Below the pieces are notes generated by a model. The model did no database searches, was not told where the DNA came from, and was given only the letters and a program-made list of their open reading frames with translations. From positions 1 to 64,000 of IMG/VR virus record IMGVR_UViG_3300042256_000013: a DNA stretch of 64,000 nucleotides. One strand, written 5' to 3'. Shown one piece after another: positions 1,433-18,279 of this stretch; position 1 is the first letter of the stretch, and each line of letters starts with the position of its first letter. The DNA is from a virus (taxonomy: Duplodnaviria; Heunggongvirae; Uroviricota; Caudoviricetes). The position numbers and the translations under genes are program-made.

Positions 1433-1443
1433 CCCTAATTTGA

Positions 1444-3004: not shown

Positions 3005-3046
3005 GTTTCGATATAAAAGATTATACAGTACTGTATGATTAACGCA

Positions 3047-3150
3047 AGGACTATTTGCATTTTAATTTAAAAATATTACTGTACAGATATACAGTACTAA
3101 ATCCACCAGCTACATTATGCCACCCTATAGGGTTAGTCCATTTCGCTGGA
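3047..3150. repeat. conserved leader repeat copy 2
   Basis: tgccaccctatagggttagtccatttcgctggagtgattaca shared with other copies. Confidence 0.65.
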
Positions 3151-3196
3151 GTGATTACATAATAACAAAAATGGTTGAACGTGTCAACCATTATTT

Positions 3197-3316
3197 TTAA
3201 AATATCCAGGCCAGTACAGCGACAAGAATAATTAATTGAAATACTCTTGTGGTCTTTGCCCCTTCGGTGTATGCTGGATTCACCGTTGTGTATTGGACAA
3301 CATGTTTCTGTTTCAT
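3197..3316 (-). CDS. small tail-anchored membrane peptide (39 aa, MKQKHVVQYTTVNPAYTEGAKTTRVFQLIILVAVLAWIF)
   Basis: CAGGAGAATCAA-ATG Shine-Dalgarno; own promoter at about 3338-3372; below the 60-aa cutoff of the ORF track. Confidence 0.35.
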   Translation of the reverse strand: MKQKHVVQYTTVNPAYTEGAKTTRVFQLIILVAVLAWIF

Positions 3317-3383
3317 TTGATTCTCCTGTTTCAGTACTGATATGATAGCAAAAGGGCTTAACCTTAGTCAAGCCCTATTTTGA

Positions 3384-4055: not shown

Positions 4056-4117
4056 TTAATGTACTAACGTGATATTAATACATTAATTGTGTGGATACCA
4101 GGTATCCACACTTGCTA

Positions 4118-4438
4118 TTATGCTTCTAACGCAGAACCAGTAAGTTTATAATGTTCACGTGCGGCACGAACATCATCAATAGTTTTGAAACGGCTTACAA
4201 AGAAACCTTTACCTAACGTGATAGTCCTGGTACGATTGGCAATAGATTGTTCAGATTCATCCATGTACTTAGGAGTTTTAGGAGACATATCAGCCGGGAA
4301 GTACACGACATATGCCATCTCAGTATAATCAACAATTACGCCGTGAGTAAATTCACCGTAATTATGAACTACTACAGTACCTAAAGCTAAAGGAAGTCTC
4401 TGAGTAGTTGCAACGTTTACAGTAGTGGATTTAGTCAT
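4118..4438 (-). CDS. hypothetical protein (106 aa)
   Basis: ORF preceded by leader repeat copy 3 at 4505-4650. Confidence 0.5.
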   Translation of the reverse strand: MTKSTTVNVATTQRLPLALGTVVVHNYGEFTHGVIVDYTEMAYVVYFPADMSPKTPKYMDESEQSIANRTRTITLGKGFFVSRFKTIDDVRAAREHYKLTGSALEA

Positions 4439-4504
4439 TTGTATGCTCGCTTAATTAATAGTTGTTTCGTTTAAGAGACACTATCTTGTCTCGATGTGTA
4501 TATA

Positions 4505-4650
4505 CTAACATAATCCATTCTCAATGCAAGTACTATTACGTTTTAATTTATAATTATTTTACTGTACAAATATACAGTACTTTTCAGTACTAAAAGCAAT
4601 TGGACGCAACTTGCCACCCTATAGGGTTAGTCCATTTCGCTGGATTGAAT
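4505..4650. repeat. conserved leader repeat copy 3
   Basis: caagtactattacgttttaatttat... ttgccaccctatagggttagtccatttcgctgg. Confidence 0.65.
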
Positions 4651-4694
4651 ACAGTATAGCAAAAAGGGCTAACCGAAGTCAACCCTTTATTTTC

Positions 4695-4916
4695 TTAATG
4701 CATCAGTTTATGGTCATTCAGCACGAATGGTGTAGCGAGTGCGTTTACCTTATCGGCGATGATCTGGCGGTCGAATCCACCCAGGAAGTTATTCAAAAGC
4801 AAACAACCCATCATGTTAAACTGATTGAACTCGCAGATCTGACCGATCACTTCATTCGCTTTCTTATCAGTGTCCGATGGTTCAGCGAACAATTCTCTTA
4901 ACATATCTTCCAGCAT
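4695..4916 (-). CDS. hypothetical protein (73 aa)
   Basis: AATGAGGGTAATATA-ATG; promoter/terminator element at 4935-4985; preferred over overlapping plus ORF 4611-4901. Confidence 0.45.
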   Translation of the reverse strand: MLEDMLRELFAEPSDTDKKANEVIGQICEFNQFNMMGCLLLNNFLGGFDRQIIADKVNALATPFVLNDHKLMH

Positions 4917-4997
4917 TATATTACCCTCATTGGTTTCAGTGTTTCAGTACTGATATTATTGATCAAGGGCTAACATATGTCAACCCCTGGATTTAAA

Positions 4998-5351
4998 TTA
5001 ATTGCAGTGATATACAATCTTTACTGGAATGTATACGCCGCCTTTAGGGATAGCGGTTTTCATGGTAAACATAGTTCCCGCTTGTTCGATAGTACCAGTA
5101 TCATTACGATAAACATTGTAATCTTTCCAGAATTGTGTAACTGGTAAATCAGTGTCGTTAACCTGTACTTCGATCACTGGTTCAGTTACAGTAATCTGAA
5201 TGATATGTGCCTGGTCAGAACTATCATTTACTTTTTGATAGTCACCATTACCAGTACCTTGATACAGTGTATAGCTACTGCAAGTATGGATTGAAGTACT
5301 TGCATTTGCGAATGAAGCCACCAGCAAGCCTAACAAAAGAAACTTTCTCAT
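4998..5351 (-). CDS. secreted protein with signal peptide (MRKFLLLGLLVASFANAST..)
   Basis: Start moved to MRKF with AACGGAGTAAATGAA-ATG; N-terminal hydrophobic signal peptide. Confidence 0.5.
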   Translation of the reverse strand: MRKFLLLGLLVASFANASTSIHTCSSYTLYQGTGNGDYQKVNDSSDQAHIIQITVTEPVIEVQVNDTDLPVTQFWKDYNVYRNDTGTIEQAGTMFTMKTAIPKGGVYIPVKIVYHCN

Positions 5352-5421
5352 TTCATTTACTCCGTTGTGTTCAGTACTGATAGGATAGCAAAAAGGGCTA
5401 ACCGAAGTCAACCCTTTATTG

Positions 5422-6138
5422 TTATTTAATTTGTCGTAATTCTCTTATTGCATCAAAGATGTATTCAATTATAATCGCTGGATTATTTGATTCTTTTTCT
5501 GCGTCAACGGTTACATCATACAAGTGTTGTACAGCTTTACGAAATACTGTAGGATGAAAACGTTGTACGATTCTAACTAATCCATCCACATATTCTGGAT
5601 TAGATTTAAAGATTCTGGACCATATATGCTTTAATGAATCTAGTTGTGATGGTGCTTCTGTTACAGTACTTTCATCTAATGATATAGCATTCATGATAGC
5701 TTCATACTTATCATAAACATCATCAGATTCAGTATTATGTGCAGCGTGAAATACTGCCTTGACAGCGTTTTGATATTGTGCTGGTGGCACTGATTTTAAT
5801 GCGGTTGTAATATCTTTGATGTAAGTTGGTTCACCGTCGAACATCTTACGCAAGACATTAGGCAGATCTTTGATCGATGGTTCAGGAGTTGGTTCACGCC
5901 CTGGCATAAGTCCTAATGATTTAAAGTACTTTAACTTTTCATCTGGATTCATGCGAGAAGTATCAACGCCCTGAGATGGCATTGTGTTTAGCTTGCCTTG
6001 TAAGCCTGTTCCCTGGTTACGTGATCCGCGATCACCTTGTCCAGCGTCATGACTGTTTGATCTACGATTGCTATTACTCCACTTGTCAGCGTGTCCAGCT
6101 ATAGTAGCATCTTTTTTGTTAACGAATTTTCCTGGCAT
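5422..6138 (-). CDS. hypothetical protein (about 238 aa)
   Basis: Start moved to MPGKF (TAGGGGATTTTTTATT-ATG). Confidence 0.5.
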   Translation of the reverse strand: MPGKFVNKKDATIAGHADKWSNSNRRSNSHDAGQGDRGSRNQGTGLQGKLNTMPSQGVDTSRMNPDEKLKYFKSLGLMPGREPTPEPSIKDLPNVLRKMFDGEPTYIKDITTALKSVPPAQYQNAVKAVFHAAHNTESDDVYDKYEAIMNAISLDESTVTEAPSQLDSLKHIWSRIFKSNPEYVDGLVRIVQRFHPTVFRKAVQHLYDVTVDAEKESNNPAIIIEYIFDAIRELRQIK

Positions 6139-6192
6139 AATAAAAAATCCCCTATGACTATAGTTTATTATAATCATATTTAGGGGATTATG

Positions 6193-6435
6193 TCAACGTC
6201 TAGCAATGAAATTGTTATATTGTTCATGAGTCATAAGGTTAAGTTTGCCATTGTCAATAACAATACGTTCTTTGTGCGATACTTCAATAACACTGAACAA
6301 TCCACAATTTAATTTTCTTGATCGCAGTTGTCCACCTTTGTATTCTTTCACAATACGAATAGCTCTGTCAAGTACTTTAGTCTGAGCTTTAAAATGAATT
6401 CGTAATTGTGTATCATCAATCATAATCTTTTTCAT
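6193..6435 (-). CDS. hypothetical protein (80 aa)
   Basis: ORF only. Confidence 0.4.
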   Translation of the reverse strand: MKKIMIDDTQLRIHFKAQTKVLDRAIRIVKEYKGGQLRSRKLNCGLFSVIEVSHKERIVIDNGKLNLMTHEQYNNFIARR

Positions 6436-6484
6436 TGATACACCCCATGAATAAACAGGGGGCTATAACCCCCTGTATCGCATT

Positions 6485-6850
6485 TTAAGAGACTTTCTGT
6501 AAATGCTGAGCCAGTCGTACCGCCGTCATACTGCGACGCCAGGAAACGCGTACAGACTTGTTATTTGGCGTTTTTAGTACTTGCTCGCCGATGATTGTGC
6601 CTGGACGGTTCAACGTTGCTTTCGCTTCTTGTGGCGATACATCGTGATGTAAGTCAGCCAGTGTCTGTTGTGCTTCTGCGATCTGTTCATCGCTGGCATC
6701 AGCAGGAAGTACAATGTACGGTTCAGATACTACCGCCCAACGTTCACCTTTAGGTGCAGTACTGCCAAAGTCTTTTACTTTCGCGTTCAGCGTAGTAGCT
6801 GCTTCACGTGCAAGTGTTCTGGTTGCGAAAAAGATAGTTTCGATAGTCAT
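6485..6850 (-). CDS. hypothetical protein (about 121 aa)
   Basis: Start at MTIETIFF with AGAGGAAAGACACA-ATG; locally GC-richer. Confidence 0.45.
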   Translation of the reverse strand: MTIETIFFATRTLAREAATTLNAKVKDFGSTAPKGERWAVVSEPYIVLPADASDEQIAEAQQTLADLHHDVSPQEAKATLNRPGTIIGEQVLKTPNNKSVRVSWRRSMTAVRLAQHLQKVS

Positions 6851-6913
6851 TGTGTCTTTCCTCTTTGTTGTCGATGAATGTACTATATCAGTACTGAAAT
6901 TACATTGCAAGTA

Positions 6914-7366
6914 CTATTTGCGTTTCAAGAATAAGTCTTTATACTCTTGTAAATCATCTAGTACTTCTTTCTTTGCTTTATCATCTTTTTGCATGTTAGC
7001 AACAATTTCAATTGCTTCCATCGCCATATTATGCCTGGCAATATCTTTACCAACATGACCAGCCAATAAAGATGAAGGGAAATGTGTAGAATCTTCTATT
7101 AATAAGAAGTCTACCATATCCTGTACAGTCATTAAAGCCCGTGGTGTAGTGGCGGCTTTATGTTCTTTCCACTTAGCATGAGCACGTTTCCATAACCGCA
7201 AACGTAAGGGATCTTTTGGCTTTGGCGGTTTAGAACCACTCATAAACGCTTGAAAGTAATCCTCTTCAGTTTTGAACTTGCGTTTAGCACCGAACTGAAC
7301 ATTACGTGCGATCTCGTCAAGGGCAGTCGCTATGCCTTTCGGCAACCCTATTGTATTCTGACCCAT
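6914..7366 (-). CDS. hypothetical protein (150 aa)
   Basis: ORF; basic/charged composition. Confidence 0.5.
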   Translation of the reverse strand: MGQNTIGLPKGIATALDEIARNVQFGAKRKFKTEEDYFQAFMSGSKPPKPKDPLRLRLWKRAHAKWKEHKAATTPRALMTVQDMVDFLLIEDSTHFPSSLLAGHVGKDIARHNMAMEAIEIVANMQKDDKAKKEVLDDLQEYKDLFLKRK

Positions 7367-7367
7367 T

Positions 7368-7697
7368 CTATCTTACCTTACATTGTACCACAAAAGAATC
7401 ATAACTGTTTTGTGCCATAAAGTCAATCTCTTTATCATTAAAAGTTTTCAGTACTTGAGTTACTTTTAAACCTTCAATGAATGTTTCTGTTTGAAGATTG
7501 TCAAGTAACTTTGTTTTTTCTATACTGAACCAACGTTCTTGTTTTAATTGATCCGGCATAAAGTACTGATACTTACAATCAAATGTCGGATCTTTAAATG
7601 GATTCAACTTGTCAATAACTTCTGGCGTAATAGATTTACCAATTACTACACCACATGCTAATGCTGCCAGTACTATCAATGTGGTTGATTTTTTCAT
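7368..7697 (-). CDS. secreted protein (signal peptide MKKSTTLIVLAALACGVVIG)
   Basis: N-terminal signal peptide; start moved to MKKST. Confidence 0.45.
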   Translation of the reverse strand: MKKSTTLIVLAALACGVVIGKSITPEVIDKLNPFKDPTFDCKYQYFMPDQLKQERWFSIEKTKLLDNLQTETFIEGLKVTQVLKTFNDKEIDFMAQNSYDSFVVQCKVR

Positions 7698-7698
7698 T

Positions 7699-8064
7699 TT
7701 ATTTGTACTCACAATTTGCAATAATCAGTCCACCAGAACCCTTTTCATCTGTAAGGAATAATTTTGTATATGTATACATATTCCTTACCTCACGTACTTC
7801 CATATTATTAATGGTATCATACTTTTTAAGAGAAAGCAAAGTACTTTTAGTTGTTTTAAAATCAAAACGATACGGTGATAGATCCTGGTGGTAATCGCGA
7901 ACTTCACAAGTGACTTCTTTATCAGTACTTGCTTCAACCTTTGCACCATTAACATTAACATTAACAACTGGTGCAGCCGATTTGACAGATTCAACATATC
8001 GACCAATATTAAGACCAGCGGCAAATGAGAATAAAGCAATTGAGATAACAGCGATTCTTTTCAT
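7699..8064 (-). CDS. secreted protein (signal peptide MKRIAVISIALFSFAAG)
   Basis: Signal peptide; AGTACT-class promoter at 8086-8127 upstream. Confidence 0.5.
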   Translation of the reverse strand: MKRIAVISIALFSFAAGLNIGRYVESVKSAAPVVNVNVNGAKVEASTDKEVTCEVRDYHQDLSPYRFDFKTTKSTLLSLKKYDTINNMEVREVRNMYTYTKLFLTDEKGSGGLIIANCEYK

Positions 8065-8085
8065 TTCAATTCTCCGTTAAGTTCA

Positions 8086-8127
8086 TGTAATCATTATAAA
8101 GTACTCGCATTCAACTTGCAAGTACTT
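8086..8127 (-). promoter_or_regulatory. AGTACT-flanked promoter: agtacTTGCAA-N17-TATAAT
   Basis: revcomp reads aagtacTTGCAAgttgaatgcgagtactTTATAATga; same architecture at 10730-10775, 11232-11268, 13583-13625 and 14243-14285. Confidence 0.55.
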
Positions 8128-8137
8128 TTGATAATGT

Positions 8138-8263
8138 TTACTCGCAAGTATAACTATTACCAGCTTGCCCCATTATTACGGTGCAGTTATTATTTGAATA
8201 CGTGACGGTGCAACCACGTAAAGCAAAGAATACTACAACGGCGATAAGTACGAACTTAAGCAT
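8138..8263 (-). CDS. small signal-peptide/lipoprotein-like peptide (41 aa, MLKFVLIAVVVFFALRGC...)
   Basis: ATG overlaps upstream stop (ATGCTTAA); hydrophobic N-terminus followed by Cys; not in ORF track. Confidence 0.3.
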   Translation of the reverse strand: MLKFVLIAVVVFFALRGCTVTYSNNNCTVIMGQAGNSYTCE

Positions 8264-8459
8264 TTGCGATCTCCAGATCTTTCTGATATTCAGCTAACCA
8301 CTTTTTTTCATGGCGTTTGAACATTGCAGCGAGGGATAACTCAATCTCACGCAATTCACCATGAGGGAATTTTCTTGCCCAACGCAAGTACTTCGCACGT
8401 GATTCACGGCTATCTCTTGCTACCATAAGTGAAAAAGGAATTGCTGGCCCGATAAACAT
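8256..8459 (-). CDS. hypothetical basic protein (about 67 aa)
   Basis: Start moved to MFIGPA with GAGGGTAAAGAAT-ATG. Confidence 0.35.
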   Translation of the reverse strand: MFIGPAIPFSLMVARDSRESRAKYLRWARKFPHGELREIELSLAAMFKRHEKKWLAEYQKDLEIANA

Positions 8460-8554
8460 ATTCTTTACCCTCTTACGATTCCCCATGAACCGGTTCGATA
8501 TAAAGATAGTACTACACCAAAAACCAAAAAGCAACTAATTTTTTATCTTTACAT

Positions 8555-8588
8555 GTAAAAAAGCCCCGACTAAGCGGGGCTTGATTTT
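8555..8588 (-). terminator. intrinsic terminator (AGCCCCGACTAAGCGGGGCT + T-run)
   Basis: GC hairpin flanked by A-run and T-run; downstream of 8603-9481. Confidence 0.7.
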
Positions 8589-8602
8589 AACAGTACTTTG
8601 TG

Positions 8603-9481
8603 TTACTTCTGGCCTGGCAGTTGCACACCAGTGATTGAACTGTTAGGAAGTACCGTTGTTGCACCGACACCCGTCCAGCGTGACGCATAGGTATATGCTA
8701 CCAGTGTGTCGCCAGCGTCTTTCAATGCCGCACCTTTAGCACGGATAGCCGATGCTTCTGCGTCGCCTTTGGCCTTGATACCTTTCGCTTCTGCGTCCAG
8801 TTTAGCAAAGTTAGAATCTGCGTCTGCTTTCGCATTGGTCAGGTTGATCTGAGAAGTGATTTTTGCTTTTTCCAGATCTTGCTGAGATTTTTCTACGGCG
8901 ACTTGTGCAGTCATGCGATCTTCAACCGCTTTATCGTATGCGGTAGAGAAAGACAACCCCTCGATCTGGATGCTGGTAATAGTTACCGGTTCATCCTTCA
9001 TCGACTCTTTGATCGCCTTGTTAACATCAGCCACCAGCTTCGCACGGTTTTGTACAGCACTGATCGCAGTATATTGCCCGAAAACGTTTTCCAATTCCTG
9101 GGGAACGTTACGATCAATAACACGTGAGATCATCGCGTCGGCAGTACCGTACTTTTTATATAACGCTTCAACCTGGCCAGGATTCACCACGTAAGACAGT
9201 GATACCGCCATATCTGCTGGTTGCTGATCACGACTATACGCCTGGAGCTTATCCCAGCGGCGACTATTTCCAGTTACTGCAATATCTTTAGTACTGGTAA
9301 CGAATGGCATAACCAGATGAAAACCAGGTTCAGCAACTTCAACAAACCGCCCGTTACGAAGTACTACGGTGCGATCTGTTTCCTGCGTGGTGAATGATGA
9401 TGCAATTGCAGCCACCAGCACCACCAAAGCGGCAAACCCCAACAAACCCCACGTTACATATTTCTTATTCGATGCTGACAT
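8603..9481 (-). CDS. SPFH/band-7 (prohibitin/HflC-like) membrane protein
   Basis: N-terminal TM helix then band-7 core and Ala/Lys/Glu-rich coiled-coil tail typical of the SPFH family. Confidence 0.8.
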   Translation of the reverse strand: MSASNKKYVTWGLLGFAALVVLVAAIASSFTTQETDRTVVLRNGRFVEVAEPGFHLVMPFVTSTKDIAVTGNSRRWDKLQAYSRDQQPADMAVSLSYVVNPGQVEALYKKYGTADAMISRVIDRNVPQELENVFGQYTAISAVQNRAKLVADVNKAIKESMKDEPVTITSIQIEGLSFSTAYDKAVEDRMTAQVAVEKSQQDLEKAKITSQINLTNAKADADSNFAKLDAEAKGIKAKGDAEASAIRAKGAALKDAGDTLVAYTYASRWTGVGATTVLPNSSITGVQLPGQK

Positions 9482-9489
9482 AAACTACC

Positions 9490-9726
9490 TCATGTTAATT
9501 TACCGGATGAATTATATAAGAAAGAAGGAATGTCCTTCTTGCCTAGTTCTACTACATATGACGGATCGATCTGCTGAACATGTTCAATAGCCCGATCCAT
9601 AGTCATCTTTGGTGCATCACCCTGGCGACTCGCTTTATCAGCCAGGATAGTACAGCGAACTTCTGTACGATTATACAGATCATTCTCAGCTTGCTTAATA
9701 TGAACTACTGATTCAACTCTTCTCAT
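9490..9726 (-). CDS. hypothetical protein (about 78 aa)
   Basis: Track start is TTG; nearest ATG used; weak RBS. Confidence 0.35.
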   Translation of the reverse strand: MRRVESVVHIKQAENDLYNRTEVRCTILADKASRQGDAPKMTMDRAIEHVQQIDPSYVVELGKKDIPSFLYNSSGKLT

Positions 9727-9935
9727 TTTTGTTTCCAAATAAAAAGATTAAACGCCAGAGAAACAATGATACCAACAAACGTTGCTGAAGTCAACAACTC
9801 AATTCGTTCAAAGTACCGATAAATTGAAATATTATCACTCGGTACAAATCGCACATAATATGCTATAGTATCAAGCATCATTGATACCAGTGCTGAAATG
9901 ATAAACACAATCAATGAACACATAAACCGTTTCAT
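9723..9935 (-). CDS. small membrane protein (70 aa, 2 TM)
   Basis: Two hydrophobic helices. Confidence 0.45.
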   Translation of the reverse strand: MKRFMCSLIVFIISALVSMMLDTIAYYVRFVPSDNISIYRYFERIELLTSATFVGIIVSLAFNLFIWKQK

Positions 9936-10017
9936 TCAAATGTACTCCTGCGTTTCGATACAATCATAGTACTACATTGTTTTTATTGGTGCAAGTACTT
10001 TATTCAAAAACTTTTCC

Positions 10018-10046
10018 TTGACAAGCCATACGAGTTCCCATATAAT
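10018..10046 (+). promoter_or_regulatory. perfect consensus sigma70 promoter TTGACA-N17-TATAAT on plus strand
   Basis: cttttccTTGACAagccatacgagttcccaTATAATtac; transcript would begin ACATAGACGCGAGAAAGCGGGAACCCAAGGGGGTGGCAA, homologous to the 5' end of sRNA-B at 17983. Confidence 0.6.
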
Positions 10047-10154
10047 TACTACATAGACGCGAGAAAGCGGGAACCCAAGGGGGTGGCAAAATGTATTCAT
10101 ATGAAATAGTACTGTACATAAAAACAGTACTGGATATTTCACCAGTACTTTGCT

Positions 10155-10463
10155 TTATAGCCAGATGTATTTCGATGCACTATAATACTCTTTGTCAAGT
10201 ACTACAACGCCGCCACAATCATACATTGTTTCTTTACCCCAACACAATAATGTGTTATTGTCAAACAATGCAAGCCAGCCATATGAATGATCAACATACA
10301 CGGTGTAGTTACCATTCGTTTCAACTTCTATCCAGTTCGCGGGTTTTCCATCGGCAACCCATGCACTGATGTTTTGTTGAGAATCTGAAATGATATGATT
10401 TTCAGCTATACCTTTCAATTTCTGTAATTGTGACAGACGATGATTTAAATCAATTTGTTCCAT
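10155..10463 (-). CDS. hypothetical protein (102 aa)
   Basis: Protein-like composition; preferred over Cys/His-rich antisense plus ORF 10091-10369. Confidence 0.5.
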   Translation of the reverse strand: MEQIDLNHRLSQLQKLKGIAENHIISDSQQNISAWVADGKPANWIEVETNGNYTVYVDHSYGWLALFDNNTLLCWGKETMYDCGGVVVLDKEYYSASKYIWL

Positions 10464-10478
10464 GATTGTATCCTTTAC

Positions 10479-10703
10479 TTAAATTGCTGAGTTACGCCCA
10501 GGGAAAGTAGTACTATTCAATCTTTCCCATATGCCCCGCTCATATGCGATCATTGCGTTTGCTTCACCCATCGCAGTATTATTGTACGTAACAACATTCG
10601 AACCATTACGCACAATATAGTACTCATGAATATTATCAGGCTGTACAGATAAAGTCAAATCAGATTTACCCTGTACCTTTAATTCTGCGATCAACGTTTC
10701 CAT
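10479..10703 (-). CDS. hypothetical protein (74 aa)
   Basis: AGTACT-class promoter at 10730-10775 upstream. Confidence 0.5.
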   Translation of the reverse strand: METLIAELKVQGKSDLTLSVQPDNIHEYYIVRNGSNVVTYNNTAMGEANAMIAYERGIWERLNSTTFPGRNSAI

Positions 10704-10779
10704 TTGAATTACCTTGTCAATAAAGTAACTTCATTATAAAGTACTCGCATTCCGCTTGCAAGTACTTTTGATAATGATT

Positions 10780-10980
10780 TTACGCTGTACGAATTACCAG
10801 GATGTTAGAATTGATTTCCCACGCCTGGCCGACTTCCAGATCAATGATGCTGCACAATTCATCATTAGTAAGATCCGGTACTGTTTCGATCACTTCCAGC
10901 AGTACTACTTTGTGCTTGATCGCGTCAGTGTCTTTGTCGCTTACAGTGTATTCACGATTCGCATGATCTGCTACGCTCAT
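10780..10980 (-). CDS. hypothetical acidic protein (66 aa)
   Basis: GGAGGGTAAACC-ATG strong RBS; preferred over plus ORF 10756-11133. Confidence 0.45.
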   Translation of the reverse strand: MSVADHANREYTVSDKDTDAIKHKVVLLEVIETVPDLTNDELCSIIDLEVGQAWEINSNILVIRTA

Positions 10981-10983
10981 GGT

Positions 10984-11187
10984 TTACCCCTCCACCAGCA
11001 CACGGGAACCACGGACATTAGGAACCTGGCCGGACTTCTTAAAGCGGTTTACTTCTTGCTCCGCTTCATGACGCGATGCGAAGTCATCAACGCGAGTACC
11101 TTCGAAACGCAGAACAAAACGCTTCTTACCTGATACATGACCAGTGAATTCAGCCATGATTGCATAACGACGATCTTTTTGAGCCAT
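10984..11187 (-). CDS. hypothetical protein (67 aa)
   Basis: AAGAGGATTTACAA-ATG; AGTACT-class promoter at 11232-11268. Confidence 0.5.
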   Translation of the reverse strand: MAQKDRRYAIMAEFTGHVSGKKRFVLRFEGTRVDDFASRHEAEQEVNRFKKSGQVPNVRGSRVLVEG

Positions 11188-11274
11188 TTGTAAATCCTCT
11201 TAATTAATGGTTATTGCGTTTCAGTAAGTTCATTATATAGTACTCGCTACCGATTGCAAGTACTATTAATGGAT

Positions 11275-11511
11275 TTACAACAAAATAATTTTGTCAATAC
11301 CAGCAGCATTCAGATCCGACATATACGCCTGATTACTGTTATTGAGCTTTTCAACGGTACATGATACATTGAAAGCATATTCATTGTAAGCCCAACCAAT
11401 GATAACGTTTCTCATAATATGCTCGTTATCATTGTCAGACAGTACTAACAGATTATCAGTACCAGCAGAACCGACTGAAGTACTTGTAACAGTTACTTTA
11501 TATTGTGCCAT
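11275..11511 (-). CDS. hypothetical protein (78 aa)
   Basis: AAGAGGAAATGCAAC-ATG. Confidence 0.5.
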   Translation of the reverse strand: MAQYKVTVTSTSVGSAGTDNLLVLSDNDNEHIMRNVIIGWAYNEYAFNVSCTVEKLNNSNQAYMSDLNAAGIDKIILL

Positions 11512-11639
11512 GTTGCATTTCCTCTTAATGATTAATACCTAAAGCCAGGATAAACAAAACAAATAACAGTACTTGATAACGTAATTTCATTTCTTTACCC
11601 TAAGTTGCCCTTCCATGTAATACATATTATCAGAATCCA

Positions 11640-11730
11640 AAAGAAATGCAAGTACTATTTTCATTTTAATTTATATTATTTTTTGGACGGATCTTGCCAC
11701 CCTATAGGGTTAGTCCATTTCTCTGGAGTG
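11640..11730. repeat. conserved leader repeat copy 4
   Basis: aatgcaagtactattttcattttaatttatattattttttggacggatcttgccaccctatagggttagtccatttctctgg. Confidence 0.65.
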
Positions 11731-11782
11731 ATTACAGTATAGCAAAAAGGGATTGAACAAGTCAACCCCTAATTTTAGTACT

Positions 11783-12088
11783 TTACAAATCGCGTACAGC
11801 CGTTGTATGTGTAATGAACCGGGAAGTTCCACCGATCAATTCAACTTTCGCCATAAGTGAAATATGATCGCCAGCAGTAGGCAAGGCTAATGCTTCCTGT
11901 ACAGTGATTACATTACCATATGAGTACTGGTACTGGCTAAACTTAAGCCATTCACCAAAGATCAATTCAGGCTTTTCCCCATGACCGACAAGGCATACAT
12001 TGTCAATCACAATCGGCTTGCCAGTATGATCTCTGCAAACTACTGTATATGTGAAAGCCTTTGAGAAGTTATCAAGGTTTATTGACAT
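11783..12088 (-). CDS. hypothetical protein (101 aa)
   Basis: ORF only. Confidence 0.5.
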   Translation of the reverse strand: MSINLDNFSKAFTYTVVCRDHTGKPIVIDNVCLVGHGEKPELIFGEWLKFSQYQYSYGNVITVQEALALPTAGDHISLMAKVELIGGTSRFITHTTAVRDL

Positions 12089-12329
12089 TTTCTAATGTTA
12101 CCTTAAGTGAGTTTGACATACGGTGTCGCATTGCTTTTAGTACCATTCGACACGCTACAATTTTTGACTTTTCATCCAACCGCTTAAACCCAGGACGTTT
12201 CATTGAATGAGATTGTAATTGTGTCCAATTATCCACCCGTTGCCCCTTGCGATAGATTATACAACTAATCCTATCAGTACTGCAAGAAAAGAATACAACT
12301 AATCGCCGGGTATTATATAATCTTTGCAT
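12072..12329 (-). CDS. hypothetical basic protein (85 aa)
   Basis: CAGGAGCTT-ATG; hairpin GGGGGCATATTGCCCCC upstream. Confidence 0.4.
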   Translation of the reverse strand: MQRLYNTRRLVVFFSCSTDRISCIIYRKGQRVDNWTQLQSHSMKRPGFKRLDEKSKIVACRMVLKAMRHRMSNSLKVTLENVNKP

Positions 12330-12376
12330 AAGCTCCTGTACAGCGTTTTAACGGGGGCATATTGCCCCCTATAGGA

Positions 12377-12754
12377 TTACAGTTCGAACTTATCGTAAAC
12401 GTTACCTGATGCGATCCAGACGCTGAATTTTGGCATGTTATCCCATTCAGCAGACTTAAGACTTAATGAATGTAAGTATTCAGTACTATCCATTCCTGGT
12501 ACATTGCGAGCCGTACTATACAACTTTCCTTTGTACTGGTACGCTAAACAGGTCTTTTTATTATTCACGTCACAACGCATAGCTGTAATGAGATTGTGGC
12601 AGGCGAACATGTCACGCTTTAATTTCAATTCACTGCCTACGCGTTTACTAACTCTCATCATTTCGCGTGAACAGTATTCGCGATCCTTTCCATGCTCCGC
12701 GATATGATTAAAAGTACCAACAATGTCAGCCATAATGGTAGTTAACTTATTCAT
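12377..12754 (-). CDS. hypothetical protein (125 aa)
   Basis: ORF preceded by leader repeat copy 5. Confidence 0.5.
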   Translation of the reverse strand: MNKLTTIMADIVGTFNHIAEHGKDREYCSREMMRVSKRVGSELKLKRDMFACHNLITAMRCDVNNKKTCLAYQYKGKLYSTARNVPGMDSTEYLHSLSLKSAEWDNMPKFSVWIASGNVYDKFEL

Positions 12755-12789
12755 GCTTTACTCCTTTCGTTTGGTGTATAAACATATTA

Positions 12790-12925
12790 TCAGAATCTAA
12801 GATTAACACAAGTACTTTATACGTTTTAATTTAAAAATAATACTGTACATGTATACAGTACTAAATCCACCAGCTACATTATGCCACCCTATAGGGTTAG
12901 TCCATTTCTCTGGAGTGATTACATA
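12790..12925. repeat. conserved leader repeat copy 5
   Basis: Same block as copy 2, including ...tgccaccctatagggttagtccatttctctggagtgattaca. Confidence 0.65.
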
Positions 12926-12970
12926 GTACTATAAAGGGCTAACCGAAGTCAACCCTTTATTTGTAAAGAT

Positions 12971-13162
12971 TTAAATAGCTTTCCAGCGGCCTTTTACTTT
13001 CCGGTGCGTTTCAATGTACATGTTGTTAATGCCGCTGATATAACCTACACTATCAGATCCCGACATTGTAGCACTTTGTTTCGCTCCACGTTCTGAATAT
13101 CCACATGGAATAGCGTTTCCTCTGGAACTTGCGAACGCATAAACACGATAGATTTTAGACAT
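12971..13162 (-). CDS. hypothetical protein (63 aa)
   Basis: ORF only. Confidence 0.4.
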   Translation of the reverse strand: MSKIYRVYAFASSRGNAIPCGYSERGAKQSATMSGSDSVGYISGINNMYIETHRKVKGRWKAI

Positions 13163-13164
13163 TG

Positions 13165-13560
13165 TTACACCGCCTTATTCAAGTACTGCACAAAGTAATA
13201 CATCGGGGAATGTAACGGCTCTTTAACAGTTACACGGTACTTGCTGATTTTGTAAACCAGTTTAAGGTTTTCAATTTCAGAGTTTTTAAGAGTATAATAC
13301 TCTTTCCCAATAATATCAAGATCAAAATGCTGCAAAAGAATAGTGCGAGCATTTGCGGCATCAACGCCAGTGTGCAAAACTGCCGCTTTCTTTTCGAACC
13401 CTTCCAGGAACTCCGAAGGAACATTTCGACGGTTCAACGCATTGATAGTGTTTTTATGAAAGCGTTTTCCGTTCTGGATCAATGCTTCATGTACTGATAC
13501 GGCTTTGTCGCCATTCATGAAACAGTAACCATCTTTGAAACCTCTAACATGTAAAAACAT
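13165..13560 (-). CDS. hypothetical protein (about 131 aa)
   Basis: AGGAAGTGAAA-ATG; track start is GTG at 13566. Confidence 0.5.
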   Translation of the reverse strand: MFLHVRGFKDGYCFMNGDKAVSVHEALIQNGKRFHKNTINALNRRNVPSEFLEGFEKKAAVLHTGVDAANARTILLQHFDLDIIGKEYYTLKNSEIENLKLVYKISKYRVTVKEPLHSPMYYFVQYLNKAV

Positions 13561-13633
13561 TTTCACTTCCTCGCTTGCTTAAGATAACTCATTGTAAAGT
13601 ACTCGCGAATGCAATGCAAGTACTTTCATTAAA

Positions 13634-13771
13634 TTATTGTTCAAATTCTGGAATAGCTACGTGATCCGCGTCTGCTTCATGATCCGTGTTATCATCTTCA
13701 TCAATATGATGACTAACACCGTTTTCCAGTACCTTACAACGTGTTCCACACTCACGGCAATAATTAATCAT
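13634..13771 (-). CDS. small zinc-ribbon protein (45 aa, MINYCRECGTRC...)
   Basis: ATGA overlap with the stop of 13768-14214; C-x2-C...C motif; acidic C-terminus; not in ORF track. Confidence 0.4.
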   Translation of the reverse strand: MINYCRECGTRCKVLENGVSHHIDEDDNTDHEADADHVAIPEFEQ

Positions 13772-14214
13772 TCTACAACCCCCGCCAGTAATTCACCAAC
13801 CCGCACCAGATGATAACGTTGCTCAAACGTTGCAGCATTGCGGCCTTTCAATTCAGCATAGCGAACGATAAACCACGTATCACCCTCAAACAAATAACGT
13901 ATATTGTTTTTAGTACAAATCAAAAACATTTCAATCGTACTGGTTTGAGGATCAACATTTGATTCACCGCGATCACGCTTATATGCGATAGTATAACCAG
14001 GCTCAGGTGTAGCGAAGGAATGTCCAGGAGGGCAATCGATCGATTCTGCCAGTACTGACAAATCACCCAGGGCAATTAATGCCGTTGCAGCATCAGCGGT
14101 GTTATAGTACTGTACTAGTTTTCTACCAGCTTGATCAATCACGCCGTCACAATTCAACCATGACCATGTAACCGTGTTACCTTCTTTAATTGCGATAACT
14201 GCTGGAGTAGCCAT
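13768..14214 (-). CDS. hypothetical protein (148 aa)
   Basis: AGTACT-class promoter at 14243-14285. Confidence 0.55.
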   Translation of the reverse strand: MATPAVIAIKEGNTVTWSWLNCDGVIDQAGRKLVQYYNTADAATALIALGDLSVLAESIDCPPGHSFATPEPGYTIAYKRDRGESNVDPQTSTIEMFLICTKNNIRYLFEGDTWFIVRYAELKGRNAATFEQRYHLVRVGELLAGVVE

Positions 14215-14291
14215 TTTTAAAACCTCATTCGCTTAAGTGATAACTCATTGTAAAGTACTTGCACGTAATATACAAGTACTTTCGTAATGAA

Positions 14292-14678
14292 TTATAGATC
14301 TTTCTTACGGTTCACATCTGCCAGGTTCTCAGATAATGGAATGTCCATATCTTTACAGAATCGTGACAATGTACCACAATCAGGAATCGGATAAGTGCAA
14401 GCAACCTCAAACAATGACAAAGCTGTTTGATCAAAGCCCCTCTCATACCCATACTGGAAAGTATCTTGTGCCAGGTCGATCCACACTGTACCATCTTCTA
14501 ATGGACGATTATACACGTTAGCCACAATCTCGTTTGCACGTTCTACTGGCACCAGCACACTAACATATACAGAATGATATGTGTTACCATCACCACGATT
14601 GAACCAGCGTTTAGCGGTCATTGTGACAGCGTGAACATCTGCGAGATTAACAGTATTATGAATAGTTCTATGTGTCAT
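14292..14678 (-). CDS. hypothetical protein (128 aa)
   Basis: ORF only. Confidence 0.5.
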   Translation of the reverse strand: MTHRTIHNTVNLADVHAVTMTAKRWFNRGDGNTYHSVYVSVLVPVERANEIVANVYNRPLEDGTVWIDLAQDTFQYGYERGFDQTALSLFEVACTYPIPDCGTLSRFCKDMDIPLSENLADVNRKKDL

Positions 14679-14782
14679 GAATATATCCTCAATTAAAAAT
14701 AGTACTGCGTTTTCAGTACTGCCTATTATACATGTTCACTTGAATGATACAAGTACTATTACGTTTTAATTTACTTTATTTT

Positions 14783-14813
14783 AAAACAAAAAATGCCCCA
14801 GGCTATGGGGCAT
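14783..14813 (-). terminator. intrinsic terminator (ATGCCCCAGGCTATGGGGCAT)
   Basis: GC hairpin with flanking A-run and T-run; ends the transcript covering the ORF-free 14835-15100 region. Confidence 0.6.
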
Positions 14814-15167
14814 TAATTGGTGAATTAGGCTCCTTTCAGAGCGTCAGTGATGGCACAAATGCGATCACTGAACTTCACACTACGCGGCAATTTATATAAG
14901 AAGTTTATCTATTAAATTGAATACCGGATAATCTTTCAGTACTAATCACATGCACCCTATAAGATGTGCTTTCGCTATGTGATTCCTGGTATAGACTTAT
15001 TTGTTCGCTATACGTCTTAGGGTTCTACGTACTGCCACCAGGATATCAGCCTGATGGTTCAAATCTTAACTCCTTCGGCGGCTCGCCATGTCGTTTCGAT
15101 GTAGCTATATTATCATAACTACCGATTCGATCAAGTACTTTTTTCAATTCTTTTTAAAATCTTTTCC

Positions 15168-15196
15168 TTGCAATCCTCATTCAGTACTGATATAAT
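15168..15196 (+). promoter_or_regulatory. consensus sigma70 promoter TTGCAA-N17-TATAAT (plus strand)
   Basis: ccTTGCAAtcctcattcagtactgaTATAATctttt with A/T-rich UP-like region upstream. Confidence 0.65.
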
Positions 15197-15202
15197 CTTT
15201 TA

Positions 15203-15359
15203 CATCGGCAGACAAAGCATGACCCCAGGGGGTGGATAATTGCGTCCAAAATTCATTACGTTTTCTCTGGACGGATCTTGCCACCCTTGTGGGTTAGACC
15301 GTTTCGCCGGATTAATAATATAGTACCAGAAAAGGGATTGAATCGTCAACCCCTTTTTT
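15203..15359 (+). ncRNA. candidate small RNA sRNA-A (about 157 nt)
   Basis: Runs from the promoter to a plus-strand intrinsic terminator (GGGATTGAATCGTCAACCCC + T6); no ORF; contains the leader-repeat sequence in antisense orientation to early mRNA leaders; long-range stem GGGGGTGG/CCACCC. Confidence 0.5.
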
Positions 15360-15366
15360 GTAAAGA

Positions 15367-15582
15367 TTAGCGAACTTTCGGATTCACAATTTCAACTAAT
15401 CGGATCTGAATGTTCCCGCTATTCAGTACTGAATCGCTTAGTTCCTTCGCTGGCTGTACTTCCATCAGCAAATCAGTGTCCAGGTCTTCATGCCAAAACT
15501 TAATATCTGGATCGGCATTACCGGCATCTTTCGCGAGCTTGTTAAGTTTCTTTAGTACTTTACGCAATTCACTTAATCTCAT
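15367..15582 (-). CDS. hypothetical protein (71 aa)
   Basis: GGGGGAGTACAAGAA-ATG. Confidence 0.45.
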   Translation of the reverse strand: MRLSELRKVLKKLNKLAKDAGNADPDIKFWHEDLDTDLLMEVQPAKELSDSVLNSGNIQIRLVEIVNPKVR

Positions 15583-15660
15583 TTCTTGTACTCCCCCTTG
15601 TTGGTGTGCTGATATAGTACTATAAAGGGCTTGAGTATTACAAGCCCTAAATTGTAAAGA

Positions 15661-16050
15661 TTATGCCAACTTCTTACGATAGTACTCAATCAGACGATCC
15701 AGGAGCTTGAGACGATTCGCCCCGTATACACTATCAGGATCATACATGTTACGCTGAGACGTGTAAGCGATCCGTTGATGGTTAGGATCGTCAGTAGTTT
15801 GAGACTCAACAGGATAGTAAGTATCTAACCCCATATCAATAAAAGCAGGAACCATAAACCCCATATCGATCCCTGAGATTTCACTGTTAGGCGTATGAAC
15901 GAACACATGCCAGCAGATACCAAATTGACGGGTAACATTGAACGGCTTACCTAACACGTTTGTGTAAGTCTCGCCACGGTCTAAACAATCTTTCATTTGT
16001 TCCAGTACTTCCAGAACTAATCTGTATTGCTCTAAATTAAAATCTGTCAT
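15661..16050 (-). CDS. hypothetical protein (129 aa)
   Basis: AACGAGGAGAAAGCACC-ATG. Confidence 0.55.
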   Translation of the reverse strand: MTDFNLEQYRLVLEVLEQMKDCLDRGETYTNVLGKPFNVTRQFGICWHVFVHTPNSEISGIDMGFMVPAFIDMGLDTYYPVESQTTDDPNHQRIAYTSQRNMYDPDSVYGANRLKLLDRLIEYYRKKLA

Positions 16051-16189
16051 GGTGCTTTCTCCTCGTTTCGATAAGTCCTATTATCCATATTCGCCAGGAC
16101 AATGCAAGTACTAATTTACTTTTAACGAACAAAAAGAAAAACCCGCTAAAACGCTCTGTAATGCGTTCTAACGGGTTTTATGTGTTAGC

Positions 16190-16459
16190 CTATGCCTTGA
16201 GTGATTCAGCGTTAAAAGCCCCGCTAATAGGCTTACATTGAATATTTACGGCATAGTTTACTTTCTTGTGAATGATATACATACACGAATCAAATTGATG
16301 GTTGTATGACATATCATAGATCCGCCGCTGAATAAGTACGCCATTAACTACAAAGGCAAGATACCCGCTAAACTCCGCTGTATGTCGCCCGGTTTGAGTC
16401 ATGGTTTTGGCGATCCTGGTTCCTGTATCAATCAGGTCTGAAATAGGTTTCAATTCCAT
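16190..16459 (-). CDS. hypothetical protein (89 aa)
   Basis: ORF only. Confidence 0.45.
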   Translation of the reverse strand: MELKPISDLIDTGTRIAKTMTQTGRHTAEFSGYLAFVVNGVLIQRRIYDMSYNHQFDSCMYIIHKKVNYAVNIQCKPISGAFNAESLKA

Positions 16460-16604
16460 AAGCGTTTACTCTCAATTAAAAGGTAGTTTAAAACGCTGTA
16501 GGAACGATTCTAAGCGTTTCTAACAGTACTGTAACCCGATTGCATGACAGTACTGTTAGAACTGCTTAAGGGGGCATTTAGCCCCCTTATTTTACGCCGT
16601 GGGA

Positions 16605-17303
16605 TTATTCGCCAGCGGTTTCAGTTTCTGCGTCGGTTTCCGCTTCCACTTTGTACGCTTTGATGAATTCATCGCGATCCAGCTTGCTTTCGGTCAGGAT
16701 TGCTTTGAGTTCGTTACCCATGTTACCTTTTACCGGCATTTCGTACTTCGTGCCGTTGTATTCGACGGTTACGCGGTCATAGCTTTTGACCGGAGCGGAG
16801 GCCGCTTTGATTTTTGATTTCATGCCAGCTTCCACCATCGCTTTTGCAGTCGCCAGATCCAGATTGTTATCCAGAAGAGTTTGAAGCATGGTCTTTTTCT
16901 CTTCTTCCAGGCTGGCGGCCAGGGCTTTCTGATCCGCTTCACGCTGAGCTTTCGCGGCGGTGCGTGTTGCTTCGCGGTCTGCTTTGCGTTTGGCAATGTT
17001 TTCCGCTTCGCGTTCCAGTACCGCAGGCACCAGGGCAACCGTTGCAGTAAACAGGCGAGTGATGATTTCCACGTTGTCGGATTTTTCGACCAGGTAATCA
17101 GCCAGTGATACCGCCTGAGCGTCGATGAAGGTGGTCAGGTCTGTTTCGTACTTCGCCAGCACTTCAGGTGAATGCTCAGCACCTTCAGCCAGGGTAGGCA
17201 GTACCGGAGCAACCGCCAGAACAATGCTGTTCAGGGTTACTTTAGGAGCTTTAACAGCAGTTTCAACAACGGTAGCAGCGGCGGTTTTGTTAGATTTAGA
17301 CAT
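16605..17303 (-). CDS. Ala/Lys/Glu-rich, GC-rich protein (232 aa); candidate abundant nucleic-acid-associated protein
   Basis: Strong RBS TAAGAAGGTAATACATT-ATG; GC content visibly above neighbouring DNA; about 280-nt 5' UTR from a promoter near 17590-17625. Confidence 0.6.
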   Translation of the reverse strand: MSKSNKTAAATVVETAVKAPKVTLNSIVLAVAPVLPTLAEGAEHSPEVLAKYETDLTTFIDAQAVSLADYLVEKSDNVEIITRLFTATVALVPAVLEREAENIAKRKADREATRTAAKAQREADQKALAASLEEEKKTMLQTLLDNNLDLATAKAMVEAGMKSKIKAASAPVKSYDRVTVEYNGTKYEMPVKGNMGNELKAILTESKLDRDEFIKAYKVEAETDAETETAGE

Positions 17304-17946
17304 AATGTATTACCTTCTTAAAAGTGATTGATTAATTTGTTTGTCTGATTCGCTTAGTGCGTCTCAGTGATTACATCTTACTACGTTTCGTTTCTTTCGG
17401 TCAAGGACTTTTTTCAACTTTCAGAAACTTTTTTTTCGTTTATCTCATGGCGGTAGATAGGACGCTAACAGTTAGTTAGCCTTTATAACGCTACGCTGCC
17501 TTATCGGTCATACGCTGTAACAGTACTATCTATTCTAGCCCCGTTACCGTTTCCTATCATCCGGCGAACCTTACCGCCATTCGATAACCAACATTCTACA
17601 CTTCTTAATCCAGTTTGCAAGTACTTTCGCAAATCTTTTTCGCTGTTAAGCTTAAGTCATTGTTTCAGTACTACAAACCAGGTTTTTAAAGAGCGGTGTT
17701 TCGTGTTGATGGGTGTATCTTATCAGATCGGTTAATCCGTGCAAGTACTTTCTACTCTTTTCGTTAAAATAGTTTCGTTCCTCGTTTCCCTTCCTTATAT
17801 GCATAACAGAATTCATAGGACGCGTTGTAAGCCCCTTAACAGTACTTAGATACACATTCACCAGGTACAAAGATAAACCCGCTCAAACTGCTTTATATTA
17901 CGTATAAGGAGGGGTAAAAAAGTTTCGTACTAATTGCAGAAAGTAC

Positions 17947-17975
17947 TTGCATTCAAAATCCAGTACTGGCATAAT
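17947..17975 (+). promoter_or_regulatory. sigma70-like promoter TTGCAT-N17-CATAAT (plus strand)
   Basis: agtacTTGCATtcaaaatccagtactggCATAATaacc. Confidence 0.5.
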
Positions 17976-17982
17976 AACCACA

Positions 17983-18140
17983 TAGACGCGAGAAAGCGGG
18001 AACCCCAGGGGGTGGCAAGTTGTGTCCAAAATTCATATAAAAAACTATAGACGGATCTTGCCACCCTATAGGGTTAGTCCATTTCGCTGGAGTGATTACA
18101 TAGTACTATAAATCGACCAGGTATGTCAAATTTATTTTTT
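17983..18140 (+). ncRNA. candidate small RNA sRNA-B (homolog of sRNA-A)
   Basis: Close sequence match to sRNA-A across acatagacgcgagaaagcgggaaccccagggggtggcaa...ggacggatcttgccaccctatagggttag; ends at an A/T palindrome plus T-run; 3' end uncertain. Confidence 0.4.
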
Positions 18141-18152
18141 CGAAAAAAAGTC

Positions 18153-18185
18153 CTTGCAAACCTCATCCAGTATGATAATATAGCC
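18153..18185 (+). promoter_or_regulatory. sigma70-like promoter TTGCAA-N16-TAATAT with upstream A-tract
   Basis: cgaaaaaaagtccTTGCAAacctcatccagtatgaTAATATagcc; the downstream 230 nt is ORF-free and iteron-rich. Confidence 0.5.
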
Positions 18186-18279
18186 ATGTCAACACGAAAA
18201 GACAGCAACTGATTCTGCCTGGTACTAACCAGACGCGGAAGGGGAGCTAATGGAAAAATGACAGAAAAAACCATTTAGC

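Follow-up and report, generated by a model that had tools for sequence, protein, structure and literature searches.

The DNA analyzed here (64,000 bp, positions 1 to 64,000 of IMG/VR virus record IMGVR_UViG_3300042256_000013; referred to as the window) was assigned from its sequence matches to a Rak2-like jumbo phage, and the subject of this work was a repeated noncoding element that we read, at about even odds, as an early-promoter cassette with its own structured 5′ leader, a two-hairpin RNA motif of about 50 bases. Positions 15000 to 18300 shared 82% identity with Erwinia phage Kaldavass and Xanthomonas phage XbC2 and had weaker matches to Yersinia phages fHe-Yen9-03/04, Serratia phage BF, Erwinia pEa_SNUABM phages, Pectobacterium phage CBB, Cronobacter phage GAP32, and Escherichia coli Asteriusvirus phages; genome sizes of the Rak2-like jumbo relatives ranged from 345 to 380 kb. 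Positions 1 to 19040 corresponded to the long terminal repeat annotated in relatives: homologous DNA was located about 1 kb inside the 21- to 22.5-kb direct terminal repeat (DTR) of relatives with defined ends (the repeat of fEgEco12 has been confirmed by PhageTerm and restriction digests; PMC13070987), and position 1 of the XbC2 record aligned to window position 19040, around which the boundary of the terminal repeat probably lies. The region from 1 to about 19000 was composed of an array of small minus-strand genes, whose products matched PHROG families of unknown function, and thus the minus strand was taken as the coding strand; these genes were predicted to be early, so that the terminal repeat would carry early genes. 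Eight of the early proteins, searched against PHROG and Pfam, matched only families of unknown function, DUF932, and Band 7. The array harbored 84 sigma-70-like promoters (57 expected) and 33 intrinsic terminators (13 expected).

Ten copies of the leader unit were found in the window, all within positions 1 to 18100 and none in the other 46 kb. The cassettes displayed the order A-run/G+C hairpin/T-run terminator, –10 hexamer, 7 to 10 nucleotides (nt), hairpin 1, 3 to 4 nt, hairpin 2, G, and a Y/R-patterned tail. The terminator hairpin, of the form AAAGGG..CCCTTT and often having G-U pairs that closed a UUCG loop, held the –35 sequence TTGAC in its stem; hairpin 1 combined a 4-bp stem of variable sequence with the purine-rich hexaloop GNGAAA; and hairpin 2 was ACCC-N3-4-GGGU. 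Seven cassettes ran along the genes, with TTGAC in the stem, a gap of 17 to 18 nt, a –10 hexamer (TATACT, TACTAT, or TATAGT), 8 nt, and the leader, and the distance from hairpin 1 to the start codon was 134 to 788 nt. The remaining three ran against the genes, behind the plus-strand promoters at 10018, 15168, and 17948, and two of these three were placed tail to tail with a gene-direction cassette. Typical leaders were UCCA-GCGAAA-UGGA CUA ACCC-UAUA-GGGU GGCAAGAUCCGUCC for a minus-strand unit and CGC-GAGAAA-GCG GGA ACCC-CAGG-GGGU GGCAAGUUGUGUCC for a plus-strand unit.

The seven gene-direction units, all on the minus strand and named by position, were as follows: (i) M18047 (18036 to 18094; UCCA-GCGAAA-UGGA and ACCC-UAUA-GGGU, then GGCAAGAUCCGUCU; 70.4 bits with covariance model [CM] R1), the unit nearest to the probable genome end, with a sigma-70-like promoter TTGACA-18-TACTAT (18100 to 18129; 10/12 consensus matches) that was kept in all relatives and whose equivalent in fHe-Yen9-03 was annotated as –35/–10; (ii) M15267 (15256 to 15314; CCG-GCGAAA-CGG and ACCC-ACAA-GGGU; CM 50.0 bits), with promoter TTGACG-18-TACTAT (15320 to 15349; 9/12 plus TG), the –35 of which was inside a terminator hairpin; (iii) M12870 (12859 to 12917; CM 54.0 bits), with tail variant GGCAUAAUGUAGCUGG and promoter 12952 to 12923; (iv) M11683 (11672 to 11730; CM 71.6 bits), with promoter 11765 to 11736 and terminator 11770 to 11748; (v) M4600 (4589 to 4647; CM 61.6 bits), with promoter 4682 to 4653; (vi) M3106 (3095 to 3153; CM 54.6 bits), with the same tail variant as M12870, promoter 3187 to 3159, and terminator 3192 to 3170, included in a 148-nt duplicate (3034 to 3181 and 12798 to 12945; repeat family D8, 87% identity); and (vii) M1081 (1070 to 1128; UGCG-GCGAAA-CGCA; CM 71.4 bits), with promoter 1162 to 1134.

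The three anti-gene units, on the plus strand, were (i) P17948 (17983 to 18040; CGC-GAGAAA-GCG and ACCC-CAGG-GGGU, then GGCAAGUUGUGUCCAAAAUUCA; CM 58.7 bits), the most conserved noncoding piece (82 to 87% identity in E. coli Asteriusvirus phages), behind an extended –10 promoter TTGCAT-17-(TGg)CATAAT (17948 to 17976) with CCAGTACTGG in its spacer, kept in Kaldavass, XbC2, CBB, and GAP32; (ii) P15168 (15200 to 15259; CM 27.9 bits over 15213 to 15259, nhmmer hit 15200 to 15251), a degenerate copy with hairpin 1 weakened to GC-AGACAAA-GC, behind promoter TTGCAA-17-(TGa)TATAAT (15168 to 15196; 10/12 plus TG); and (iii) the solo unit P10018 (10054 to 10111; CM 49.9 bits), antisense to the gene array and without a facing unit, behind a perfect consensus promoter TTGACA-17-TATAAT (10018 to 10046; 12/12) and ahead of a CTGT-N8-ACAG palindrome and, at 10126 to 10149, a weak hairpin. 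P17948 faced M18047 (site 1, promoters 17948/18129) and P15168 faced M15267 (site 2, promoters 15168/15349). A hairpin at 15332 to 15359 (–8.0 kcal/mol), with an A-run before it and a T-run after it (tail TTTTTTG), was bidirectional: it terminates the upstream minus-strand gene, and it could also end a plus-strand RNA of about 155 nt from about 15203.

The sequence comparison was extended to relatives by profile search, structural scan, and CM, which gave 66 units (65 distinct sequences) from eight genomes, with about 10 to 14 units per relative clustered in a single region of no more than 27 kb. Every one of the 66 units was preceded by a sigma-70-like promoter in its own orientation (8 to 12 of 12 matches), and the distance from the –10 end to hairpin 1 was 7 to 10 nt throughout and exactly 8 nt in 51 units. 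The three inner pairs of hairpin 1 were paired in all 65 distinct sequences, with two-sided changes in 21 to 27 sequences and three to four pair types per position (stem variants included UCCA, UGCG, UCAG, GGAA, GACG, GACA, UGAA, CAAA, GCCA, and UGGC); the covariation score was reached by none of 500 shuffles, and sliding the partner strand reduced pairing from 92% to 10 to 44%. Pairing of hairpin 2 was likewise kept through CUC/GAG and CCU/AGG variants. The hairpin 1 loop was GCGAAA (35), GAGAAA (20), or AGAUAA (6) in 61 of 65 sequences and a close variant in the rest; it was 88% purine and always located on the promoter strand, and G-U pairs outnumbered A-C pairs by 12 to 1 in hairpins 1 and 2. 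Both the loop asymmetry and the G-U excess matched the promoter strand. The comparison established the anatomy of the unit, its linkage to a promoter, its structure, and its strandedness.

The motif was confined to Rak2-like jumbo phages. Fixed-pattern hits from an IMG/VR scan were mostly due to chance and were filtered with the CM: CM-positive loci were present only on giant Rak2-like contigs, while 52 other pattern hits were CM-negative, and the DTR of the distant relative PA5oct contained no unit. A suspected diverged copy at about 49627 (minus strand) gave no CM hit. Rfam 15 (including c4, sar, RNAI, CopA, and Sok), run on the whole window at gathering score, detected only five transfer RNAs (tRNAs), and at E values up to 5 it detected only sub-threshold microRNA-hairpin look-alikes in 14900 to 19500. 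A search of a paper library found no paper describing the motif and no transcriptome for Rak2-like genera; the CBB paper listed only RpoD-like promoters. Mimicry of clustered regularly interspaced short palindromic repeats and tRNA-like readings were dropped, as no resemblance was seen by eye, and a Shine-Dalgarno-like role of GGGUG was dropped, as its GGG was paired within hairpin 2.

The reading that we favor, with a probability of roughly 0.5, is that the motif is a cis-acting 5′-terminal leader serving transcript protection or recognition by a factor. Host RNA polymerase with sigma-70 would start 0 to 2 nt before hairpin 1 (the 7- to 10-nt spacing would leave 0 to 3 free nt), so that the RNA would physically begin with the motif, and the leader would act in cis on its own transcript: (i) the hairpin flush with the triphosphate end would block 5′-end-dependent decay by RppH and RNase E, and (ii) the surface formed by the loop and the hairpin 2–GGGUG segment, whose invariance suggests recognition by a factor, would be read by some phage or host factor. 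A secondary effect is conceivable where two cassettes converge: RNase III might also cut the RNAs that overlap there or the long hairpin formed by each. The rules of RppH- and RNase E-dependent decay are established for E. coli mRNA, and 5′-terminal stem-loops with no more than about 2 free nt stabilize E. coli mRNAs, as in the ompA and T7 phi10 leaders. The present motif shared with these two leaders a hairpin that starts no more than about 2 nt from the predicted start of transcription, but the ompA and phi10 hairpins need no particular loop, while here the loop, the second hairpin, and GGGUG were nearly invariant and the motif was present on 10 to 14 promoters.

Several points weigh against this reading. 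Single units folded no better than shuffled sequence (z-scores –0.5 to –0.9), and the support for the structure comes from covariation only. A candidate third helix GGGUGN/NRYCY, competing with hairpin 2, was 89.5% paired, albeit almost only via G-U pairs and one-sided changes, and one variant had its compensatory change in hairpin 2 and lacked one in this helix. Copies within a genome resembled each other, and some of the conservation may stem from gene conversion or from duplication; the 148-nt pair is a case in point. Consensus matches were the basis from which start sites, RNA ends, and timing were deduced. A plain stabilizer would need neither the invariant loop nor the GGGUG segment. A second promoter-like site was seen by eye between unit and gene in five of seven leaders, which makes the role of the upstream transcript less clear. 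Finally, a pure cis-leader model leaves unexplained the three position-fixed anti-gene copies in all genera.

These anti-gene copies bring in the next explanation, which we hold possible but clearly less probable than the cis-acting leader, namely that antisense RNAs act in cis where the two pairs converge. Over their first approximately 110 nt, the minus-strand leaders from promoters 15349 and 18129 would be overlapped by the plus-strand RNAs from promoters 15168 and 17948, and the first early transcription units would be tuned by duplex formation, by cleavage with RNase III, or by collision of polymerases. This scheme is compatible with the cis leader as an added layer. Anti-gene units occupied fixed positions across genera (site 1 at about 1 kb from the end, site 2 at about 4 kb, and the solo unit at about 9 kb), and CBB and GAP32 had one further unit at about 21 to 23 kb. 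Face-to-face pairs with fixed geometry (58-nt model hits overlapping by 4 to 6 nt; 4 to 5 nt in the window) were present in most genomes examined at both site 1 and site 2, and also at another site in CBB and GAP32, although the facing copy at site 1 in vB_Ec-M-J was marginal (13.8 bits). The facing promoters, which were consensus matches only, were kept in relatives as well. The predicted cis duplexes were strong (–125 and –134 kcal/mol), and a long hairpin was predicted on each strand (z-scores –4.7 and –1.9 for the minus strand, –3.0 and –2.7 for the plus strand). At site 2, the anti-gene strand carried a hairpin and U-tail in six of seven genomes, but this terminator belonged to the generic symmetric design common to all cassettes and was not antisense-specific, and at site 1 the anti-gene strand had no terminator in any genome examined. 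Moreover, the convergent overlaps stopped 633 and 788 nt short of the next start codons and left the ribosome-binding sites free, the plus-strand unit at 15200 was degenerate in the window, and the solo unit at 10054 would be left unexplained.

Known face-to-face promoter/antisense pairs include P22 Pant/Psar (sar RNA), ColE1 RNAII/RNAI, and lambda oop. The convergent loci resembled these in having facing promoter consensus sites 110 to 170 bp apart, whose predicted transcripts would pair along the main transcript's 5′ leader; they differed in that both predicted RNAs started with the same motif, no ribosome-binding or primer-maturation site was covered, one of the two antisense RNAs lacked a terminator, and no Rfam antisense family matched.

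A further idea, which we consider unlikely, is that the motif would be a new phage RNA tag by which a phage or host factor selects a class of early transcripts for protection, processive antitermination, or 5′-end modification, and that antisense RNAs from the three anti-gene copies would erase the tag on particular leaders by duplex formation and RNase III. If true, this would amount to a sense/antisense leader code timing the early program of Rak2-like jumbo phages.

Slightly less probable still is that the unit is a processive antitermination signal of the HK022 put or lambda nut type, in which RNA polymerase, modified by the two-hairpin RNA as it emerges (with or without help from a phage protein), would pass the numerous intergenic terminators of the early array. 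As with nut (boxA/boxB) and put, RNA hairpins were placed promoter-proximally in phage early operons holding terminators; the purine-rich hairpin loop was reminiscent of that of boxB, terminators were 2.5 times commoner than expected, and the unit was found on a subset of promoters only. However, none of the ten units had a boxA-like [CT]GCTCTT[TA] or GCTCTT in the 200 nt that followed it, no convincing arginine-rich N-like protein was encoded among 40 early open reading frames (ORFs), the hairpins were much smaller than those in put, and no Rfam match was obtained; 10 to 14 copies per genome, three of them antisense, are also unlike nut or put.

The earlier note had proposed that plus-strand small RNAs (sRNAs) from 15203 and 17983 pair with a repeated leader of at least six early mRNAs and shut off or process them in trans. 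The observation behind this proposal was partly confirmed. The quoted 42-mer had three matches with no more than three mismatches (4602, 11685, and 18049; none expected by chance), and a wider 94-nt family (D2) had seven plus-strand copies (1081, 3106, 4600, 11683, 12870, 15267, and 18047), but the five positions given for the repeats (1040, 3047, 4505, 11640, and 12790) were each 40 to 95 nt too low, and at 3106 and 12870 only the first approximately 33 nt of the motif was present. The 5′ half, ACCCCAGGGGGTGG..., indeed recurred at 10073, 15222, and 18002 (family D20), the palindrome CCCTATAGGG was present, and the long-range stem could be drawn between GGGGGTGGCAAG (18008 to 18019) and CTTGCCACCC (18058 to 18067). 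All three plus-strand promoters named in the note were recovered and were kept in relatives. The claim of two terminated units without an ORF needed correction: the hairpin plus T6 at 15332 to 15359 was found as claimed, but about 18140 only an A/T-rich palindrome was present (best hairpin –1.2 kcal/mol) and no convincing terminator, and small mechanical ORFs, none gene-like, overlapped both loci. The copies said to lie inside 5′ untranslated regions were indeed in leaders but, more exactly, at the extreme 5′ end of the predicted minus-strand transcripts, each right after its own minus-strand promoter, and the predicted RNA from 10018 would, like the other two plus-strand RNAs, start with the motif in sense orientation but had no antisense part.

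The trans regulon itself was partly supported, and we rate it improbable because compensatory changes in hairpin 1 kept the stem within each RNA intact while weakening its pairing in trans. The 17983 RNA, taken through 18098 and thus including the anti-M18047 segment, had perfect runs of 27 to 36 nt to five other leaders in the window, with predicted duplexes of –73 to –90 kcal/mol (shuffles gave about –23 to –33 kcal/mol), and complementary hexaloops could in principle start loop-loop pairing. On the other side, the 15203 RNA reached only 9 to 20 nt and the 10053 RNA none, the site 1 RNA lacked a terminator, and the plus-strand RNAs carried the target motif themselves. Nor was the long complementarity kept across relatives: perfect runs were 8 to 19 nt in the genomes of about 82% identity, Kaldavass and XbC2, 5 to 10 nt in CBB and GAP32, and 6 to 18 nt in Serratia BF, with only fHe-Yen9-03 reaching 14 to 33 nt. 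The conserved multi-target complementarity of the P1 c4/P4 CI trans-acting type was not found here.

The two sRNA loci are best read as face-to-face pairs of promoter-plus-leader cassettes and not as a dedicated antisense regulon. Any two inverted copies of one unit give the GGGTGGCAAG/CTTGCCACCC stem, and the perfect stem over the shared GGGUGGCAAG has the same origin. In CBB, GAP32, and Asteriusvirus, this sequence was changed to GGGUGCGGAG, which would reflect a lineage-specific unit sequence. Covariation of GGGTGGCAAG/CTTGCCACCC across genomes was rejected as proof of a selected long stem: it arises automatically from inverted copies of a lineage-specific unit, the partners differed at 0 to 3 of 10 positions, and facing partners were no more alike than unpaired units.

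Least probable of all is a purely DNA-level recombination cassette resembling the promoter-early stem-loop (PeSL), its leader being conserved through whole-cassette copying without RNA function: the terminator-promoter part fit the PeSL description, and the 148-nt duplicate, the similarity of copies within a genome, and the placement between small ORFs of unknown function agreed with copying, but the stem sequence changed freely with pairing kept in 65 of 65 sequences and the loop was fixed and strand-specific across four genera, neither of which copying alone predicts.

PeSL cassettes of T4-like phages consist of A3-4G3-loop-C3T3-4 followed by a sigma-70 promoter (Comeau et al. 2014, PMC4122927; also Arbiol et al. 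2010, PMC2839356). Both systems have an A-run/G-rich stem-loop/T-run terminator fused to a sigma-70-type early promoter and recur many times among small ORFs without known function in a T4-related phage (here repeat families D2, D4, and D5; nearly all annotations in relatives were "hypothetical protein"). PeSL are associated with insertions, deletions, or replacements between close relatives; comparison of the window with its relatives showed blocks of similarity. In PeSL the Shine-Dalgarno sequence and start codon follow directly, while the unit-bearing cassettes had a conserved two-hairpin leader of about 45 nt, the whole leaders were 134 to 788 nt long, the –35 was inside the stem-loop, and some cassettes were inverted and paired. 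We classify the element as an early promoter cassette of the PeSL type to which a structured leader has been added; its new features are the conservation of that leader, the length of the leaders, and the occurrence of copies in inverted pairs.

Several sequence features were observed next to the cassettes. On the minus strand, about 790 nt without a credible ORF (17304 to 18093) separated the first gene (16605 to 17303, PHROG 20181) from the first early promoter, with several further promoter-like sites having AGTACT just before them; a gap of like size was present in CBB, fHe-Yen9-03, XbC2, and Serratia BF, and this stretch could be a long noncoding leader. The DTR of PA5oct encodes two highly expressed noncoding RNAs (PMC7318152). 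A possible mini-ORF, TTG-(Cys/Arg/Tyr)-Pro-Lys-Phe-(Ile/Lys)-stop (18019 to 18039), was located 5 to 6 nt past the G-rich segment of site 1 plus-type units; it is probably not coding, since vB_Ec-M-J and one CBB copy have lost its start codon. The motif TTTGTAAAGATT (AATCTTTACAAA on the gene strand) abutted the terminator hairpin of several cassettes in several genera (window 12960 to 12971 and 15357 to 15368). Five CTGT-N8-ACAG palindromes (TACTGTACA..ATACAGTA; 0.9 expected by chance) resembling LexA SOS boxes were found at 3079 to 3094, 4562 to 4577, 9663 to 9678, 10112 to 10127, and 12843 to 12858, four of them following a leader unit at a distance of 10 to 30 nt; the palindrome behind the solo plus-strand unit was kept in Kaldavass and partly in fHe-Yen9-03 and Serratia BF.

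The palindrome AGTACT was 13 to 15 times over-represented (279 sites in the window vs. 18 to 21 expected), occurring about every 230 bp, inside genes too, and most densely in 1 to 20000; many promoters contained it as AAGTACTTGCAA, in spacers as CAGTACTG, or as the –10 sequence TAGTACTAT. It was enriched about 15- to 20-fold in the first 24 to 35 kb of Kaldavass, XbC2, CBB, GAP32, vB_Ec-M-J, fHe-Yen9-03, and Serratia BF, and this enrichment was absent in PA5oct. None of the other palindromic hexamers exceeded 1.8-fold, and at least six (CCTAGG, CCGCGG, CCCGGG, CCATGG, CAGCTG, and AGCGCT; about 3 to 8 of each expected) had no site in the window, which suggests restriction-site avoidance.

Further along the window, three features were recorded: (i) a tandem array at 19038 to 19197 with about 13 copies of AGTACTGGAT, directly past the start of the XbC2 record and represented by a single copy in Kaldavass; (ii) an array of at least eight paralogous plus-strand genes (19446 to 26000) diverging from the terminal repeat, with a common ribosome-binding site and N-terminal sequence ATGTTACCATTTCCAA (MLPFP...), whose homologues were annotated as RCC1-like in Kaldavass; and (iii) a cluster of five minus-strand tRNA genes (60134 to 61934; Ala-TGC, two Met-CAT, Lys-CTT, and Cys-GCA).

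The inverted copies of the leader motif mimic an antisense regulon, and the tempting over-reading that they invite is corrected here. Rak2-like jumbo phages infect E. coli, Klebsiella, Erwinia, Yersinia, and other enterobacteria and have been isolated for therapy and biocontrol, and their early gene control is so far uncharted. The outcome for these phages is a compact, covariation-supported RNA motif with a covariance model and about 70 examples, tied to a promoter class in the terminal repeat, from which experimenters gain concrete predicted start sites, mutations, and candidate small RNAs to test.

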